Assembly: GCA_030390025.1 (NCBI GenBank)
Contig: CM059432.1
Span: 20,524,001 to 20,588,000, forward strand
Length of the DNA stretch: 64,000 nt
Reading direction: 5' to 3'
Origin: Squalus acanthias
Lineage: Eukaryota
The notes under the pieces were generated by a model. That model made no database searches and was not told the origin of the DNA. It saw only the letters and a list, made by a program, of their open reading frames with translations. The position numbers and the translations under genes were made by a program. Every line of letters starts with the position of its first letter. Position 1 is the first letter of the stretch. Shown one piece after another: positions 39,475-52,900 of the stretch.

Positions 39475-40020
39475 ACATAAGAACATAAGAAATAGGAGCA
39501 GGAGTAGGCCAATTGGCCCCTCGAGCCTGCTCCGCCATTCAATAAGATCATGGCTGATCTGATCCTAACCTCAAATCTAAAGAACACAAGAAGTAGGAGC
39601 AGGACCCGGCCACTCAGCCCCTGGGCCCGCTCCGCCACCCACAGGGCCTTGACCGATCCGAACTCAGCCTCATGTCCAATTTCCTGCCCGCTCCCCGTAA
39701 CCCCTAATTCCCTTTACTTCTAGGAAACTGTCTATTTCTGTTTTAAATTTATTTAATGATTTAGCTTCCACAGCTTCCTGGGGCAGCAAATTCCACAGAC
39801 CTACTACCCTCTGAGTGAAGAAGTTTCTCCTCATCTCAGTTTTGAAAGAGCAGCCCCTTATTTTAAGATTATGCCCCCTAGTTCGAGTTTCACCCATCCT
39901 TGGGAACATCCTTACCGCATCCACCCGATCAAGCCCCTTCACAATCTTATATGTTTCAATAAGATCGCCTCTCATTCTTCTGAACTCCAATGAGTAGAGT
40001 CCCAATCTACTCAACCTCAT
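39475..40020 (-). mobile_element. CR1 3' end with a doubled 3' UTR
   Basis: RLSRLGLYSLEFRRMRGDLIE ORF; two successive AAGAAC...TAGGAGCAGGA terminal modules. Confidence 0.9.
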
Positions 40021-40037
40021 TGAACCTCATAAAATTG

Positions 40038-40490: not shown

Positions 40491-41935
40491 TGTACAACAA
40501 CCCTCCTTGCTCGATTTTATGACCTCTTCAGGCTGCATGCCAGACCATACCGGGGGTATGCAGCCTTGAAAAACTTACCTAATATAATACAGAAATTTAA
40601 TGGTTTGAAACAAGATGGGTCATCCCCTCATGTTCAGTATGAAAATCCAACAGTAAATATATCCATAAAATAATTAAAACATTTTACATAATTTAATAGC
40701 AGTAATCAACTTCAAGACACATATGTATCGGTTGAGTGATTCTTTAATACTCAGCTTCATCGCATGTCTATTATTGACATATATGCCTGACTGTCCATTT
40801 TTATTGAGAAAATCAAAAAGCTATAAGATATTTTTTTCAATATTCTTCTTAAAAAGAATATCAATGAGTCAAAATAATGCAGGAGGACAGACTTGATTGA
40901 AAGACTTGACCTATTGTCCTGTTCTTCAGCAAAGCTGGCCCACCCTTAATTAGTCCCACACATTGATTAATGTTTACGGAAGGGGTATTGCTATCAGGCA
41001 CCTTTTATACATCAGTTGCAAAGAATTATAATTAACATTAAGATCATTTTTCTTTGTTCTTCCCATTATTTTGTATGAATAATGAGGGTGCATTAGAGGC
41101 AAGAAGGAATTGCTCAGGTTATTAGGGAGCTGAATTGTTATCAGTGGTAATGCTATTATGAACCTTGGAATGATTAAGCATCAACTGTGAATGTTAATTC
41201 AGCTCTGTCTTACTATCAGTTCCTAAGTCAATCTCCTAATGTGGTCTGATGAAAGATTTATCCCCAAAACGTTTCTATATTTTTCTTTTCAGATGCTAAC
41301 TAACCAGCTGCATATATCTAACATATTTTTATTATCAGCACTCATGGTTTAACAAAGCATTAAAAAACAGAAACTGAAACAATAAAGCAAAAGAATTGGA
41401 CATTGTATTTCTTTCCAGCAGTTTGATTTTTAAATGGTTCCTGATAGTGACACAATCAGTCTTTGAGTTTTCTTGGAACACCTCTGCAATGGGTTTGAAA
41501 TCCAAAGGTTGACATCATTGTATGTAGAGATTTATTTATTTAATTAATTGTTTTAGGAATTATAGGCTTAGGTTTGCTAAGGTACGACAAACAGCAGACA
41601 CTAATTGTATCATAAATTAGTTGCTGACATTCATAAAAGTTAGCAAAGAAGAGAGCCAGATTTAATTAGGAAGTCACCTCTTTAAAGTCTTGAAGGTTTT
41701 GAATTGAGCCTTTTTCTCCTTTCTTGACTCCAAGAACTATACATAGCTATTATGTATCTTCACCCAACTAAATTTAAACCAAGCAGATTTCAGCATGCAA
41801 AAGAAAAATGTGACAATCCATGTTCGGGGTGCTAACCTGCAGTATGAGAGCGTCAATGAACAGCCAATAGCTCCCATTAGGTTGGAAACTAACCAATGTG
41901 CCACCTATATTTAAAAACTGGTGCTGAAGCAGAAC

Positions 41936-42360
41936 CAATAGGTGAAGTAAGAGTGACTGCCCTTGACATCGACGCACCATTCGACCGAGTGTGCCACCAA
42001 GGAGCCATAGTAAAACTGAAGTCAAAGGGGATCATGGGGAAAACTCTCCAATGGCTGAAGTTATACCTAACACAAAGGAAGATGGTTGTGGTTGTTGGAG
42101 GCCAATCGTCTCAGCCCCAGGACATTGCTCCAGGAGTTCCTCAGGGCAGTGTCCTCGGCCCAACTACAGCTGCTTCATCAATGAGCTTCCCTCCATCATA
42201 AGGTCAGAGGTAGGGCTCTTCGCTGATTGCAAAGTGTTCAGCTCTATATGGAATAAAGCAGTCCATGCCTGCATGCAGCAAGACCTGGACAACACCCAGG
42301 CTTGGGCTGATAAGTGGCAAGAAATGTTCGTGCCACACAAGTGCCAGGCAATGACCATAA
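41936..42360 (+). mobile_element. RT fragment of the LINE family at 49997-53200
   Basis: GEVRVTALDI, GVPQGSVLGP, GLFADC; collinear with 52055-52455. Confidence 0.88.
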
Positions 42361-42364
42361 TATT

Positions 42365-43010
42365 ACATAGTATTTACAGCACAGAAACAGGTCATTGAGC
42401 CCAACAGGTGAATTGGAGTGTTTATGCTCCACACGAGCCTCCTCAACCTTTTTCATCTAACCCCATCAACATATCCTTCTATTCCTTTTTCCTTCAAGTG
42501 TTTATCTAGGTTCCCCTTAAATTCATCTATGCTATTCGCTTGAACTACTCCTTGTGATAGCGAGTTCAACCTTCTAATCACTCGCTGGGTAAAGAAGTTT
42601 TTCCTGAATTCCCTATTTGATTTATTGTGACAATCATATTTATGGCCCCTAGTTCTGGCTTCCCCTGCAAGTGGAAACATCTCTACATTTACCCTATCAA
42701 GCCCTTTTATAATCTTAAAGACCTCTATCAGATCACCCTTCAGTCTTCTCTTTTCGAGACAAAACTGCCCCAGCCTGTTCAAACTTTCCTAATAGGCATA
42801 ACCTCTTAGTTCTGGTATCATCCAGGTAAATCTTTTGTGCACCTTCTCCAGTGCCTATATATCCTTTTTATAGTATGGAGACCAGAACTGTTCACAGTAC
42901 TCTTAAGTGTTGACTAACCAAGGTTCTATACAAGTTTAACATAACTTCTCTGCTTTTCAATTCTCTCCCTCTGGAAATGAACCCCAGTGCTTTGTTTACT
43001 ATTTTTATGG
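42365..43010 (-). mobile_element. CR1 3' end
   Basis: [29 protein letters not shown]. Confidence 0.88.
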
Positions 43011-43259
43011 CATTTTTACAGGGTCCTACCGTGGTAGAGTCTTCCTTCTTTTCCAAACAGTAGTCCTTGCTCAATCCAATTTCCAAACACCTTTTAATGC
43101 ACATGTTTAATGTTGAATGCCACCGTAACCTTTACAGTGCTTTGTGTGCCCTGGTGTTTGACTCTAATTAAAGAAAGAAAGACTTGCATTTATATAGCAT
43201 TAATAATATATATTAATAACCTAAGAACATAAGAATTAGGAGCAGAAGGCCATATGGTC

Positions 43260-43680: not shown

Positions 43681-43769
43681 AGAACATAGAACATAGAACA
43701 TAGAACAGTACAGCACAGTACAGGCCCTTCGGCCCTCGATGTTGTGCCGAGCATTGTCCGAGACCAAGA

Positions 43770-46553
43770 TCAAGCTATCACACTCCCTATCACTCTGGTG
43801 TGCTCCATGTGCTTATCCAATAACCGCTTGAAAGTTCCTAAAGTGTCCGACTCCACTATCACAGCAGGCAGTCCATTCCACACCCCAACCACTCTCTGAG
43901 TAAAGAATCTACCTCGGACATCCCTTCTATATCTCCCCCCATGCACCTTATAGTTATGCCCCCTTGTAACAGCTGCCTCTACCCGAGGAAATAGTCTCTG
44001 AACATCCACTCTATCTATCCCCCTCATCATCTTATAAACCTCTATTAAGTCGCCTCTCATCCTCCTCCGCTCTAAAGAGAAAAGCCCCAACTCCCTCAAT
44101 CTTTCCTCATAAGACCTCCCCCCCAAACCAGGCAGCATCCTGGTAAATCTCCTTTGCACTCTTTCCAATGCTTCCACGTCCTTCCTATAGTGAGGTGACC
44201 AGAACTGCACACAATATTCCAAATGTGGTCTCACCAAGGTCCTGTACAGTTGCAGCATAACCTCACGGTTCTTAAACTCAAACCCTCTGTTAATAAACGC
44301 CAACACACCATAGGCCTTCTTTACTGCTCTATCCACTTGAGTGGCAACCTTCAGAGATCTGTGGATATGAACCCCCAGATCCCTCTGCTCCTCCACGTTC
44401 CTCAGAACCCTGCCGTTGACCCTGTAATCCTTATTCAAATTTGCCCTACCAAAATGAATCACCTCGCACTTATCAGGGTTAAATTCCATCTGCCATTTTT
44501 CGGCCCAGCTCTGCATCCTATCAATGTCTCTTTGCAGCCTACAACAGCCCTCCACCTCATCCACTGCTCCACCAATCTTGGTGTCATCAGCAAATTTACT
44601 GATCCACCCTTCAGTCCCCTCCTCCAAGTCATTGATAAAAATCACAAACAGCAGAGGACCCAGCACCGACCCCTGTGGCACACCGCTGGTAACTGGTCTC
44701 CAGTCCGAAAATGTTCCATCCACCACCACCCTCTGCCTTCTATGAGATAGCCAGTTACTTATCCAATCGGCCAAATTTCCCTCTATCCCACAACTCCTTA
44801 CTTTCTTCATAAGCCGACCATGGGGAACCTTATCAAACGCCTTACTAAAATCCATGTATACGACATCAACTGCTCTACCTTCATCTACACACTTAGTTAC
44901 CTCCTCAAAGAATTCAATCAAATTTGTTAGGCAAGACTTACCCTTCACGAATCCGTGTTGACTATCCCTGATTAAGTTGCCCCTTTCCAAATGGTCATAA
45001 ATCCTATCCCTCAGGACCTTTTCCATTATCTTACCAACCACCGAAGTAAGACTAACTGGCCTATAATTACCAGGGTCATTCCTATTTCCTTTCTTGAAGA
45101 GAGGAACAACATTCGCCACTCTCCAGTCCTCTGGCACCATTCCCGTGGACAGTGAGGACCCAAAGATCAAAGCCAGAGGCTCTGCAATCTCCTCCCTTGC
45201 CTCCCAAAGAATCCTAGGATATATCCCATCTGGCCCAGGGGACTTATCGACCCTCAGGTTCTTCAAAATTGCTAAAACATCTTCCCTCAGAACATCTACC
45301 ACCTCCAGCCTATCCACCTTTATCACACTCTCATCCTCAAGAACATGGCCCCTCTCCTCGGTGAACACTGACGAAAAGTATTCATTCATCACCTCTCCTA
45401 TCTCTTCTGACTCCATGCACAAGTTCCCACTACTGTCCTTGACCGGCCCTACCCTCACCCTGGTCATTCTTTTATTTCTCACATAAGAGTAAAAAGCCTT
45501 GGGGTTTTCCTTGATCCGACCCGCCAAGGACTTCTCATGCCCCCTCCTAGCTCTCCTAAGCTCTTTTTTTAGCTCATTCCTTGCTACCTTGTACCCCTCA
45601 ATCGACCCAACTGAACCTTGTTTTCTCATCCTTACATACGCTTCCTTTTTCCTCTTGACTAGACATTCAACCTCTTTTGTGAACCATGGTTCTCTCACTC
45701 GGCCATTTCCTCCCTGCCTGACAGGGACATACCTATCAAGGACACGCAGTAATTGCTCCATGAAAAAGCTCCACTTTTCGTTTGTGCCTTTCCCTGATAG
45801 TTTCTGTTCCCATCTTATACTCCCTAATTCTTGCCTAATCGCATCATAATTACCCCTCCCCCAATTATAAACCCTGCCCTGCCGTATGGCCCTATCCCTC
45901 TCCATTGCAATAGTGAACGTTACCGAATTGTGGTCACTATCTCCAAAGTGCTCTCCCACATACAAATCAAACACTTGGCCCGGTTCATTACCCAGTACCA
46001 AATCCAACGTGGCCCCAGCTCTTGTCGGCCTATCCACATATTGTGTCAGGAAACCCTCCTGCACACACAGTGCAAAAACTATCCCATCCGAACTGTTTGA
46101 CCTATAAAGGTTCCAATCAATATTTGGAAAGTTGAAGTCACCCATGACAACTACTCTGTGACCTCCACACCTATTCATAATCTGCTTTGCAATTTCTTCC
46201 TCCACATCTCTATTACTATTTGGGGGCCTGTAGAAAACTCCTAACAACGTGACCGCTCCTTTCCTATTTCTAACTTCAGCCCATATTACCTCAGACGGCA
46301 GATCCCCCTCGAACTACCTTTCTGCCGCTGTTAAACTATCCTTGATTAACAATGCTACTCCTCCACCTTTCTTACCAACTTCCCTACTCTTACTGAAACA
46401 TCTATACCCCGGAACTTCCAACAACCATTCCTGTCCCTGTTCTAACCATGTCTCCGTAATGGCCACCACATCGTAGTCCCAAGTACCAATCCATGCTCCA
46501 AGTTCTCCTACCTTATTCCGGATGCTCCTTGCATTGAAGTAGACACACTTCAA
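43770..46553 (-). CDS. CR1 ORF2: APE endonuclease plus reverse transcriptase, one internal TAG at 46314-46316
   Basis: KCVYFNARSI, AITETWL, GGGVALL, GDFNFP, LDLVL, SDHN, YRPVSLTS, DFSKAFD, PQGSVLGP, FADD; ORFs 46314-46553 and 43770-46247 share one frame. Confidence 0.93.
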
Positions 46554-46580
46554 GCCATCTTCCTGTCTGCCGGTACATTC

Positions 46581-47594
46581 CTACGACCTTGATACCCTCC
46601 TCAGTACCTCCCTACACTCACCACTGGCTCCTGGACTACAGCCCTTTTTCCCATCCCCCTGACAAATTAGTTTAAACCCCCCCCGAAGAGCCGTAGCAAA
46701 TTTCCCTCCCAGGATATTGGTGCCCCTCTGGTTCAGGTGCAAACCGTCCTGTTTGTACAGGTCCCACCTTCCCCAGAATGTGCTCCAATTATCCACATAA
46801 CTGAAACCCTCCCCGCTACACCATCCCTGCAGCCACGTGTTTATCTGCACTCTCTCCCTGTTCCTCAACTCGCTAGCACGTGGCACCGGCAACAAACCAG
46901 AAATTACAACATGGTTTGTACTGGCTCTCAGCTTCCAACCTAGCTCCCTAAATTCCTGTTTTAAATCCCCGTCCCTTCTCCTACCTATGTCGTTGGTACC
47001 GATGTGTACCACGACTTGTGATTGTTCCCCCTCCCCTTTGAGGATTCTGAAAACACGGTCCGAGACGTCACGGACCCTGGCACCCGGGAGGCAACATACC
47101 ATCCGTGAGTCTCTTTTGCTGCCACAGAACCTCCTATCTGTCCCTCTGACTATTGAGTCCCCAATAACTATTGCTCTCCTGCTCTCCCCCGTTCCCTTCT
47201 GAGCCACAGGGACGGACCCAGCGCCGGAGATCCGGTCACCATGGCTTACCACTGGTAAGTCGTCCCCCTCAACAGTATTCAAAGCGGTATACCTGTTACT
47301 GAGGGGAACGACCACAGAGGATCCCTGCACTGACTGCTTCCTCCTAGCCCCTCTCACCGTCACCCATCTATCTTCATGCTTTGGAGTAATTACATCCCTG
47401 AAGCTTCTATCTATGACCTCCTCTGCCTCCCGAATGATCCGAAGTTCATCCAGCTCCAGCTCCAGTTCCCTAACACGGTTTTCGAGGAGCTGGAGATGGG
47501 TGCACTTCCCACAGGTGTAATCAGCAGGGACACCTACGGTGTCCCTCACCTCAAACATTCTGCAGGAGGAACATTTCACTGCCTCCCCTGCCAT
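46581..47594 (-). CDS. CR1 ORF1: zinc finger, leucine zipper and SGNH/GDSL esterase
   Basis: CSSC...CGKC, LENRVRELELELDEL, IVIGDSIVRG, VHIGTNDI, DGLHLN. Confidence 0.93.
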   Translation of the reverse strand: MAGEAVKCSSCRMFEVRDTVGVPADYTCGKCTHLQLLENRVRELELELDELRIIREAEEVIDRSFRDVITPKHEDRWVTVRGARRKQSVQGSSVVVPLSNRYTALNTVEGDDLPVVSHGDRISGAGSVPVAQKGTGESRRAIVIGDSIVRGTDRRFCGSKRDSRMVCCLPGARVRDVSDRVFRILKGEGEQSQVVVHIGTNDIGRRRDGDLKQEFRELGWKLRASTNHVVISGLLPVPRASELRNRERVQINTWLQGWCSGEGFSYVDNWSTFWGRWDLYKQDGLHLNQRGTNILGGKFATALRGGFKLICQGDGKKGCSPGASGECREVLRRVSRS

Positions 47595-47790
47595 CCCCTC
47601 CAGCTAACTTGCAGATTAAACTAGAACAAAAAAGAGCTTACCTGATAGTCACTCACCTCCTTTAGGTTAGAGGAGGAGGAAGGGTGGGGGACACTACAAG
47701 TGTAGTGTCTCGGGTTTAGGAACCGCCCAACTTATATACAGGTAAAAATTAATCACCTACCCAGCAACCACTGCGTCCCGCACTTTAAAA

Positions 47791-48018
47791 GCCTCTGTGG
47801 GCCTACCTGGTCGCCGCCGCCTCTTGAGTCCTCCGCCTCGCCGCAGCCGCTCCACCCAGGTCCGCCGCCTCTGTGGGCCTACCTGGTCGCCGCCGCCTCT
47901 TGAGTCCTCCGCCTCGCCGCAGCCGCTCCACCCAGGTCCGCCGCCTCTGTGGGCCTACCTGGTCGCCGCCGCCTCTTGAGTCCTCCGCCTCGCCGCAGCC
48001 GCTCCACCCAGGTCCGCC
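47791..48018. repeat. Three identical 76-bp GC-rich tandem monomers at the CR1 5' end
   Basis: Unit GCCTCTGTGGGCCTACCTGG...CACCCAGGTCCGCC starts at 47791, 47867 and 47943. Confidence 0.95.
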
Positions 48019-48411
48019 GCTTCCTGATTGTTTGCACTATGTCTTTCAGGGCAAGCTTAAGAATGAATGAATCAAAAGGTCCCAGGCACCACATTTCCTA
48101 AAAGGGTCCTAATACAAGCACAGGTCCCCTATTTGCATATTTTACTGAAGCTAACATTCATTTCAGGTGGACTGAACCAATATGGCGGCTGCCGCTTTTT
48201 GTGCCCGCTTCTGGTGCAAGAAATTCCATCACAGAATAGGTAAGACGAACGTTGAAAACTTGCGGAAATGCAAATGAGCTTCTACTCCCAAAAAGTGGGT
48301 TGAAGGTTAGAAAGCAGCGGTTAATTGTTTGGGAAGTGATGTTGAGATAGGGGCAAAGTTTGAGTGAAATGCCCAGGGACTGACCTTGGGACCTCTACTG
48401 TTTTTAATTAG

Positions 48412-48685
48412 AATTATAGAATCATACAATGGATACAGCACAAAAGGAGGCCATTCGACCCGTTGAGCCCGTGCCGGCTCTCTGCAAGAGCACTTCAGCT
48501 GGTCCCACTCCCCCGCCCTTTCTCCGTAGCCCTGCAATTTTTTTTCCTTCAGGTACTTAGCCAATTCCCTTTTGAAAGCCACGATTGAATCTGCCTCCAC
48601 CAGCCTTTCAGGCCGTGCATTCCAGATCCTAACCGCTCGCTGCGTAAAAATGTTTTTTCTCATGTCGCTTTTGGTTCTTTTGCCT
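48412..48685 (-). mobile_element. CR1 3' end
   Basis: MRKNIFTQRAVRIWNARPERLVEADSIVAFKREL. Confidence 0.88.
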
Positions 48686-49019
48686 AAAAGAACTATAAGA
48701 ATAATAATAGAGAAAAATCTAAAGGAGAATCTGAGAAAATAAGGAGAAGGGGTTAAGCCAAAATTGTCCCCTAAATGTGGGACTTGGATTTGACTTTAGG
48801 CCAGACTGATTGAAAGAAAGCTGTTTGTAAGGGCCTTAAGCAAAATGTACATGAGCAGCCTCAGCATCCTTCCTAGTGGAAATAATCTCATAGTGCAAAA
48901 AATACCCAGAGCATAAACCCCCTCCCAAACAGCACACAATTCAACGTGTTGTGATAGTCTCAATAGGAGAGGCTACAATTTTAGCTGGTATTGGAAATGA
49001 AAATGGCACATTATAGGAG

Positions 49020-49996: not shown

Positions 49997-52900
49997 GGGA
50001 AAGGTAGCATAGTGGTTATGTTACTGGACTAGTAATCCAGAGGCCTGGACTAATGATCCAGAGACGTGAGTTCAAATCCCACCACGGCAGCTGGGGAATT
50101 TAAATTCAGTTAAATCTGGAACAAAAAGCTAGTATCAGTAATGGTGACCATGAAACTATCGGATTGTCGTAAAAATCCATCTGAATCACTAATGTCCTTT
50201 AGCGAAGGAAATCTGCTGTCCTTATCTGGTCTGGCCTATATATGACTCCAGATCCACAGCAATGTGGTTGACTCTCAGTACACAACCACTACGAAAAACA
50301 ATAATAAGAATAAAACTGGAGGGACTGGAGAGACCACCTGGCATCGGCTTCGGACACGACAACGGCACATCCAGACCAGTCGACCCTGCAAAGTCCTCCT
50401 CATTAACATCTGGGGACTTGTGCCAAAATTGGGAGAGCTGTCCCACAGACTAGTCAAGCAACAGCCTGACATATTCATACTCATAGAATCATACCTTTCA
50501 GCCAATGTCCCAAACTCCTCCATCACCATCCCTGGGTAAGTCCTGTCCCACCGGAACGACAGACCCACCAGAAGTGGCGGCACAGTGGTATAGAGTCGGG
50601 AGGGAGTGGCCCTGGGAGATCTCAACATTGACTCCGGACCCCATGAAGTTTCATGGCTTCAGGTCAAGCATGGGCAAGGACACCTCCTGCTGATTACCAC
50701 CTACCGCCCTCCCTCAGTTGATGAATCAGTACTCCTCCAGGTTGAACACCACTTGGAAGAAGCACTGAAAGTAGCAAGGGCACAGAATGTACTCTGGGTG
50801 GGGGACTTCAATGTCCATCACCAAGAGTGGCTGGGCAGCACCACTACTGACCGAGCTGGCCGAGTCCTGAAGGACATAGCTGCCAGACTAGGACTATGGC
50901 AGGTGGTGAGAGAACCAACACGAGGGAAAAACCTACTTCACCTCGTCCTGTCGCAAATGCATATGTCCATGACAGCATTGGTAGCAGTGACCACCGCACA
51001 GTCCTTGTGGAGACGAAATCCCATCCTCACACTGAGGACACCATCATTCGTGTTGTTTGGCACTACCACTGTGCTAAATGGGATAGATTCAGTACAGATC
51101 TAGCAGCTCAAAACTGGGCAATCATGAGGCGCTATGGGCCATCAGCAGCAGCAGAATTGTATTCCACCACAATCTGTAACCTCATGGCCCGGCATATCCT
51201 TCACACTATCATTACCATCAAGTCAATGGGCCAACCCTGGTTCAGTGAGGAGTGCAGAAGAGCATGCCAGGTGCAGCACCAGGCGTACCTAAAAATGAGG
51301 TGCCAACCTGGGGAAGCTGCAACACAGGACTGCATGCATGCTAAACAGTGGAAGCAGCATGCTATAGACAGAGCTAAGTGATCCCACAATCAACGGATCA
51401 GATCAAAGCTCTGCAGTCCTGCCACATCCAGTCATGAATGGTGGTGGACAATTAAACAACTAATGGGAGCAGGCGGCTCCATGAATATCCCCATCCTCAA
51501 TGGAGCCCAGCACGTGAGTGCAAAAGACAAGGCTGAAGCATTTGCAACAATCTTCAGCCAGAAGTGCCAAGTAGATAATCCATCATGGCCTCCTCCTGAG
51601 GTCCCCACCACTACAAAACCAGTCTTCAGCCAATTTGATTCACTCCATGTGATACCAAGAAGTGGCTGAGCGCACTGGATACAGCAAAGGCGATAGGTCC
51701 TGACAACATCCTGGCTGTCGTGCTGAAGACTTGTGCTCCAGAACTAGCCGCGCCTCTAACCAAGCTGTTCCGGTACAGCTACAACACTGGTATCTACCCA
51801 ACAATGTGGAAAACTGCCGAGGTATGTCCTGTCCACAAAAAGCAGGACAAATCAATCCAACCAATTACCGCCCCATCAGTCTACTCTCAATCATCAGCAA
51901 AGTGATGGAAGGTGTCGTCGACAGTGCTATCAAGCGGCACTTACTCACCAATAACCTGCTCACTGATGCTCAGTTTGGGTTTCGACAGGAACACTCGGCT
52001 CCAGACCTCATTACAGCCTTGGTCCAAACATGGACCAAAGAGCTGAATTCCAGAGGTGAGGTGAGAGTGACTGCTCTTGACATCAAGGCAGCATTTGACT
52101 GAGTTTGGCATCAAGGAGCCCTAGTAAAATTGAAGTCATTGGGAATCGGGGGGAAAACTCTCCACTGGCTGGAGTCATACCTAGCACAAAGGAAGACGGT
52201 TGTAGTTGTTGGAGGCCAATCACCTCAACCCCAGGACATCACTGCAAGAGTTCCTCAGGGCAGTGTCTTAGGTCCAACCATCTTCAGCTGCTTCATCAAT
52301 GACCTTCCCTCCATCACACTGTTCAGTTCCATTCGCAACTCCTCAGATAATGAAGTAGTCCATGCCCGAAAGCAGCAAGACCTGGATGACGTTCAGGCTT
52401 GGGCTGATATGGGGCAAGTAACATTCACGCCACGCAAGTGCCAGGCAATGACTATCTCCAACAAGCGAGATTCTAACCACCGCCCCTTGACATTCAACGG
52501 TATTGCCATCGCCGAATCCCCCACCATCAACATCCTGGGGTCACCATTGACCAGAAACTTAACTGGACCAGCCACATAAATACTGTGGCTACAAGAGCAG
52601 GTCAGAGGCTGGGTATTCTGTGACAAGTGTCTCACCTTCTGACTCCCCAAAGACTTTCCACCATCTACAAGGCACAAGTCAGGAGTGTGATGGAATACTC
52701 TCCACTTGCCTGGATGAGTGCAGCTCTAACCACACTCAAGAAGCTTGACACCATCCAGGACAAAGCAGCCCAGTTGATTGGCACCCCATCCACCACCTTA
52801 AACATTCACTCTCTGCACCACCGGCGTACCGTGGCTACAATGTGTACCATCTACAAGATGCACTGCAGCAACTCACCAAGGATTCTTCGGCAGCACCCCC

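Follow-up and report, generated by a model that had tools for sequence, protein, structure and literature searches.

The stretch analysed here, referred to as the window, comprises 64,000 nucleotides (nt) of the Squalus acanthias genome (GCA_030390025.1, contig CM059432.1, positions 20,524,001 to 20,588,000) and carries on its minus strand a long interspersed nuclear element (LINE) of the CR1 clade, whose two open reading frames (ORFs) meet at a junction built around the heptamer U_UUA_AAC. Considering its sequence, this junction is read as a real and conserved recoding-type signal, visible through a copy that is itself broken. The parts of the element concerned are as follows:

43681..48036, minus strand: CR1-clade LINE copy of about 4.35 kb, near full-length and inactive (5' end approximate)
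46667..47594, minus strand: ORF1, with an N-terminal Cys motif (CxxC...CxxC), a predicted coiled stretch and an SGNH/GDSL esterase domain (Pfam PF13472, E 1e-12)
46677..46684, minus strand: run of eight G (the family norm is seven)
46670..46676, minus strand: U_UUA_AAC (TTTAAAC) heptamer, likely -1 frameshift site
46667..46669, minus strand: ORF1 stop TAA, adjoining the heptamer on its 3' side (TAA or TAG depending on the family)
46650..46659, minus strand: G-box GGGGG-AT-GGG, first G 11 nt past the heptamer, candidate linear stimulator
46542..46676, minus strand: -1 frame linker of 45 codons (FKLICQGDG...LKCV), Met-free, with TAG at 46583-46581 where the family has CAG
43770..46550, minus strand: ORF2 body, with APE (apurinic/apyrimidinic-type) endonuclease and reverse transcriptase (RT) (Pfam PF03372, PF14529 and PF00078)

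By its sequence, the element is filed as an esterase-type CR1, namely subgroup 7 with an ORF1 of type IVB, a class described in the covered parts of PMC4120745 as having an ORF1 that combines a zinc finger/leucine zipper (zf/lz) with an esterase. It resembles the CR1 elements of that paper in its two ORFs, its ORF1 with Cys motif and SGNH esterase, its ORF2 with APE and RT, and its 3' microsatellite. The closest named ORF1 homologues are shark and ray proteins, the homologues also including bird proteins. In the endonuclease tree, 9 of whose 37 branches are well supported, the element clusters with a bird-like locus (support 87/84). The window copy itself is inactive because of an extra G near the end of ORF1 and two TAG codons, at 46583-46581 and at 46316-46314, the latter interrupting the endonuclease in the ORF2 frame.

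The sequence-only reading had proposed that a slippery heptamer directly precedes the ORF1 stop and that one surplus G conceals it. The letters are indeed as claimed, the minus strand showing G8 at 46684-46677, TTTAAAC at 46676-46670 and TAA at 46669-46667. With eight G, the ORF1 of the window copy is carried into the ORF2 frame (...ALRGGFKLICQGDG...), up to the TAG at 46583-46581; with seven, the family norm, ORF1 encodes 308 amino acids ending in ...ALRGGLN*, and 135 nt, i.e. 45 codons of the -1 register, separate the heptamer from the Tyr of LKCVYFNARS. It had also been stated that the first Met of the ORF2 frame falls inside the endonuclease: the ATG at 46178-46176 follows the N of NARS by 119 codons, and a product begun there would therefore be devoid of the first half of the endonuclease. 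Within the window alone, the 10-letter motif of the junction occurs once and at least one match is found in 27 of 100 shuffles, which is not beyond chance; the evidence therefore comes from the family.

Exact copies of the junction, counted genome-wide, have six G in 21 cases, seven in 1208 and eight in 50. Among 40 seven-G copies chosen by position, 36 have a linker that is open, in register and Met-free, the remaining four showing one stop, two indels and one substitution in the scoring motif. The linker TAG of the window copy is rare, being present in 2 of 30 copies and in 2 of 71 (the same two copies) in a larger set. Four public runs of four organisms were also compared: their main contigs all lack one G and carry C where this TAG has T. 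For the comparison of G-runs, the 40 seven-G copies (drawn from the first 87 on one contig) were set against 31 of the 50 eight-G copies, and no variant separating the two (n=40 and n=31) was found (P 0.3-1.0). Since eight-G copies are spread over many branches of the tree without any separating variant, the eighth G is ascribed to recurrent slippage or miscalling, in line with the earlier suggestion of a mutation or a miscall. A distinct lineage of eight-G copies had been considered and was discarded, the apparent shared variants having come from a biased seven-G sample.

These G-runs also bear on an explanation in which the polymerase slips on the run, so that an extra G in some transcripts would fuse ORF1 to ORF2, the eight-G copies being products of such transcripts. 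Eight G do set ORF1 in the ORF2 frame, and eight-G copies are commoner than six-G ones. This is hardly credible as a general explanation, because the upstream G-run is not general: six or more G precede the heptamer in 2 of 19 representatives only, the others having GCT, GCA-T or GGA-T. Besides, the eight-G copies have no private shared variants and are scattered on the tree, and the heptamer would be left unexplained. As a separate observation, several families, represented by the seven-G copies (window 46677-46684) and loci L056, L059 and L185, carry a second heptamer, G_GGU_UUA, which overlaps U_UUA_AAC from one codon upstream and, in the seven-G copies, is in the -1 register.

Across the families of this genome, copies were gathered by two selections that are independent of the heptamer, one on the end of ORF1 with free codons and the other on the endonuclease motif alone. 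The first one (DGLHLN, 18 codons, then Leu-Asn-stop, in any codons) returned 11,970 ORF1 ends genome-wide, of which 11,122 (93%) read T TTA AAC; with a spacer one codon longer, the pattern gave 218 matches, which are +3 variants only. In 40 fetched ORF1 ends, the terminal site is TTTAAAC in 36, TTTAAAT in three and TTTCAAC in one; 18 codons upstream in the same 40, the Leu of another Leu-Asn pair is TTA, CTC, CTG or TTG in 14, 11, 9 and 6 cases, respectively. Comparing the codons of seven cluster representatives, six from this genome and one from a metagenome, the terminal Leu is encoded by TTA only, between three and five codons occur in each of the three other Leu columns that are invariant, and the codon before the heptamer varies (Ala, Gly, His, Thr) while ending in T in all seven.

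The second selection gave 19,561 matches, of which 86 were fetched and 84 were usable. A heptamer with its stop lies 90-300 nt upstream of the endonuclease motif in 55 of the 84, in the -1 register in 49 of these 55; the other 29 copies look truncated or mutated. The modal distances from heptamer to endonuclease (135, 150, 156, 165, 174, 192, 201 and 207 nt) are all multiples of 3, as are those of 180 and 198 nt, which come from one intact copy each. Among older copies of the first selection, many of the exceptions to the register trace to families with an unstable second G-run after the stop; its commonest length is 7 positions (16 of 30), which gives 207 nt, in register, in 5 of 10 scorable copies. 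A small family (L166, L167) is represented by decayed copies only, with distances of 205 and 206 nt.

Beyond this genome, evidence was sought in homologous proteins and in metagenomes. A Leu-Asn C-terminus is found in 59 of the 67 ORF1 homologues that cover the C-terminal helix, out of 101 in total, which is evidence at the protein level only; named proteins with this ending come from sharks (Mustelus, Stegostoma), rays, frogs (Hyla, Leptobrachium), an eel (Synaphobranchus) and a penguin (Pygoscelis). Three proteins stand apart (P0006, P0038 and P0155): one is a CR1 ORF1 filed under a bacterial name, probably by host contamination, and two, both predicted, continue from ORF1 into the -1 linker. 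When metagenomes were scanned with the endonuclease pattern, at least 61 loci were obtained, some of them unrelated. Among these, the bird-like L083 and L086 and the fish-like L082, so labelled from a reading of their sequence, exhibit TTTAAAC-TAG in the -1 register at 111, 264 and 99 nt, respectively. Taken together with the families above, the heptamer, the stop and the -1 register are kept across the families of the Squalus genome and in other vertebrates, a conservation that the earlier reading had put forward for checking. All the checks on sequence that it had named, those of G-run length and of an open linker free of AUG included, turned out favourable to it.

The most telling comparison comes from more distant relatives. 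An esterase profile from which the last four residues had been left out matched nine of the metagenome loci listed, and in seven of them ORF1 and ORF2 overlap in the -1 register with a heptamer inside the overlap, the two exceptions (L086 and L111) carrying indels. The heptamer is U_UUA_AAC in two of the seven and U_UUU_UUA in five, where it sits one or 13 codons before the stop; the Pfam esterase is found in the ORF1 of these five loci, above the curated cut-off in three. Within the U_UUU_UUA group, 57 of the 59 ORF1 homologues with the motif end in Phe-Leu-x, and Leu at position 25 after DGLHL is common to both ORF1 groups. Of all signs that slippage is conserved, and not an amino acid, this replacement of one known shift site by another in the same position is the strongest. 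By the codon contrast and the heptamer exchange, the heptamer is conserved beyond protein-coding needs. In a broader set, 20 metagenome loci have a long ORF1 in the -1 relation, and a strict heptamer lies in the overlap of 13, against about 1.0 expected from its rate in the rest of ORF1, an excess whose P value is overstated because the loci are related. Among the metagenome loci listed with a long upstream ORF, the majority are in the -1 relation to ORF2.

Conservation at the protein level, or by mere inheritance, has to be weighed against these data: a C-terminal Leu-Asn would be needed, its codons would be kept by descent, and ORF2 would be expressed otherwise, e.g. by splicing at a CAG/G past the stop. 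The Leu shared at position 25 by both groups would fit, as would the invariance of some neighbouring third positions. The consensus of branch point and splice acceptor offers a further parallel, since CTAAT...CAG/G in several families resembles the two, but the distance between the putative branch point and the AG is about 8 nt and a pyrimidine tract is lacking. No joint skipping at CAG/G was seen in the contigs of the four public runs, contigs being able to show presence, not absence. Moreover, the other Leu columns switch codon freely, the sister group ending in Phe-Leu-x re-creates a heptamer one codon earlier, and a protein constraint cannot fix the register over linkers of 99-309 nt. Altogether, this explanation is considered very unlikely.

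In intact members of the family, an ORF1-ORF2 fusion is probably made through programmed -1 frameshifting at U_UUA_AAC. What is directly seen is the heptamer, the stop, the fixed -1 register, the open linker, the lack of a shared AUG, the conservation, and the exchange in distant relatives; the slip, the fusion protein and the share of fusion are steps we infer from the sequences. Most ribosomes would halt at the UAA or UAG after the heptamer and release the ORF1 protein (ORF1p), and a minority would slip back by one base at U_UUA_AAC, i.e. on the last two ORF1 codons, then read a linker of 33-100 codons and continue into the endonuclease and the reverse transcriptase. More speculatively, vertebrate-type elements would be stimulated by the G-box at 11 nt downstream, as a protein-bound linear RNA, and a low-GC sister group by a hairpin. 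The window copy would be a dead member whose layout is hidden by the extra G.

Several points weigh against this mechanism, and the folding results given further below belong with them. In the block compared over the seven representatives, three other third positions are also invariant, so that third-position invariance alone is weak. Among older copies selected on ORF1, the -1 register is found in 16 of 29 only, the other frames accounting for 10 and 3. Copy counts are not independent events because families share ancestry. In addition, a family of at least 1061 copies (L141, L147, L150, L172) reads TTTAAAC-TAATG, the UAAUG overlapping the ORF1 stop, and some other families have an AUG within the linker.

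These last observations lead to termination-reinitiation, whereby ribosomes, having terminated at the end of ORF1, would begin again in the -1 frame, either on an AUG that overlaps the stop or on a non-AUG codon, yielding a separate ORF2 protein (ORF2p). The TTTAAAC-TAATG family fits this scheme, coupling at UAAUG is established in SART1 (PMC3708506 and PMC2699510, in their covered parts), AUG-independent initiation of ORF2 is reported for mammalian LINEs in the portion of PMC5009743 covered, and a restart codon tied to the stop could also yield a fixed overlap. SART1 and mammalian L1 thus face the same problem of translating ORF2 from a bicistronic mRNA, and one CR1 family shares the UAAUG; they give a separate ORF2p, however, whereas most CR1 families here are without such an AUG and keep a slippery heptamer. 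Neither the focal family nor 15 of the 16 own-genome representatives have UAAUG, and the one family that has it retains the heptamer. Reinitiation further leaves unexplained both the invariant upstream T TTA AA and the swap to U_UUU_UUA one or 13 codons before the stop, and the -1 frame codon after C-UA varies. It is therefore held to be improbable as the general mode, frameshifting remaining the preferred explanation. With slippery site and UAAUG stop-start in a single junction, the TTTAAAC-TAATG family constitutes a natural test case of frameshifting versus reinitiation. On another note, 3 of 112 copies (L049, L174 and L178) appear 5'-truncated exactly at TTTAAA of the heptamer, which could be due to microhomology, a pause in reverse transcription, or detection bias.

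As regards a downstream stimulator, no stable fold was found in the 60 nt past the heptamer in 16 own-genome representatives (z -1.2 to +1.4). Among low-GC relatives, a hairpin starting 8-12 nt downstream is found in 5 of 9 (z -2.6 to -3.3), and a downstream hairpin in 3 of 5 U_UUU_UUA relatives; no significant hairpin was detected in the low-GC L076, L099, L108 and L119, and an alignment of six low-GC relatives gave no consensus structure. What is fixed in vertebrate-type copies is the G-box, where position +11 is G in all 19 representatives and positions +12, +13, +14 and +18 are G in 18 of them. Its position stays fixed as the linker diverges beyond it, and five consecutive G are seen in 4-8% of the other 25-nt windows in the same elements. 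Read in the -1 frame, +11 and +14 fall on third positions of codons, which suggests a constraint at the RNA level. No conserved long-range partner of the G-box stood out in the downstream DNA, which covered up to 1.6 kb and was truncated at several loci. The sequence-only reading had pointed to G-tracts after the junction: these are present downstream as described, but only 1 of 19 representatives has four GGG tracts, so that a G-quadruplex of four tracts is not a general feature. Even when two-tier folds are allowed, a quadruplex is predicted in 10 of 19 and not in the focal family, and it was rejected as a general stimulator.

In the covered portion of PMC5009743, viral stimulators are typically RNA structures 5-9 nt downstream; vertebrate-type CR1 elements show none, and their stop adjoins the heptamer. 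The same source describes a minority of stimulators placed 11-15 nt downstream and working with trans-acting factors, e.g. in PRRSV, where nsp1beta and PCBP act on CCCANCUCC, a short linear motif 11 nt past the shift site, with no RNA structure. The CR1 G-box likewise starts at +11, yet it is G-rich, and the likeness is one of spacing only. By this analogy, a protein-bound G-box may act as the stimulator, which is our leading guess, still short of probable. The fuller proposal, in which vertebrate frameshifting would be driven by a protein-bound G-box at 11 nt and the active enzyme would be an esterase-tethered, Gag-Pol-like fusion, is advanced tentatively and appears doubtful in its entirety.

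Both heptamers of the esterase group have viral precedents in the covered part of PMC5009743, namely U_UUA_AAC in infectious bronchitis virus (IBV) and other coronaviruses and U_UUU_UUA in human immunodeficiency virus 1 (HIV-1), with a structural gene upstream and the polymerase in the -1 frame; U_UUA_AAC, G_GGA_AAC and A_AAA_AAC are listed there among the most shift-prone heptamers in mammalian ribosomes. Closer to CR1, a figure legend of a review (PMC5911963) states that the ORF2 of the Dictyostelium elements TRE5-A and TRE3-A depends on a -1 frameshift. Like CR1, these are APE-type elements without long terminal repeats (non-LTR), but they belong to another clade with another ORF1, and their frameshift is taken from that review statement; the parts of PMC5006619 covered add nothing on it. 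A description of frameshifting in CR1 was not found in full-text literature searches, whose coverage left aside older primary CR1 papers and Repbase notes that may mention an overlap. PMC4120745 does not mention 'frameshift' or 'overlap'; in their covered portions, a 2016 review of frameshifting does not mention CR1, and the chicken genome report gives CR1 two ORFs and no mechanism. The junction would represent a variant of a mechanism already known, in a family of elements for which these searches brought up no account of it.

According to the parts of PMC3708506 and PMC5009743 covered, it is unclear how LINEs translate their ORF2 when one mRNA carries two genes. CR1 is the most abundant repeat class of the chicken genome (PMC11835228) and has about 12,000 recognisable ORF1 ends in the Squalus genome. 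A defined heptamer and a downstream box make the question of ORF2 translation testable. If frameshifting holds true, the active enzyme would be an ORF1-ORF2 fusion, annotations of ORF2 that rely on an AUG would remove part of the endonuclease, another rule would be required when screening for 'intact' CR1 copies, and vertebrates would carry a widespread natural -1 frameshift with a stimulator other than a pseudoknot.

Regarding the distribution of such elements, the covered parts of PMC4120745 have the esterase ORF1 as 'exclusively vertebrate', whereas low-GC metagenome loci that carry it fall outside the vertebrate-type clade in a weakly resolved tree. Mostly low in GC, L073, L075, L106, L108, L117 and L119 are esterase-ORF1 CR1-like loci of this kind. 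Non-esterase members have G_GGA_AAC or A_AAA_AAC, and five more have G_GAA_AAC or G_GAA_AAU, mostly less than 20 nt from the opening of the -1 frame; no stable fold was found 3' of these heptamers at 13 loci (z -1.7 to +1.4). As ORF1 may also constrain residues at these sites, the wider pattern is treated as a lead. Fourteen non-esterase CR1-like metagenome loci (L074, L077, L078, L085, L088, L094, L096, L101, L103, L110, L112, L116, L118 and L128) have a -1 overlap of ORF1 and ORF2 with G_GGA_AAC, G_GAA_AAC or A_AAA_AAC near the -1 opening, and many have a G-rich tract 12-13 nt downstream.

The two ends of the window copy carry repeats:

47791..48020, minus strand: 5' untranslated region (UTR) array of three 76-bp monomers
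43681..43707, minus strand: 3' terminal microsatellite, 7-nt unit in 3.9 copies

CR1 elements end in a short tandem repeat rather than poly(A), and the window copy has such a 3' end. The monomer array resembles the promoters of rodent L1 elements, and the copy number of the 76-bp monomer differs between full-length copies. Elsewhere in the window, further CR1-type 3' fragments lie on the minus strand at about 39670-40026, 42453-43131 and 48307-48795, and a second LINE family is represented on the plus strand by fragments at 50193-52102 and 41893-42398, whose translations resemble endonuclease and RT.

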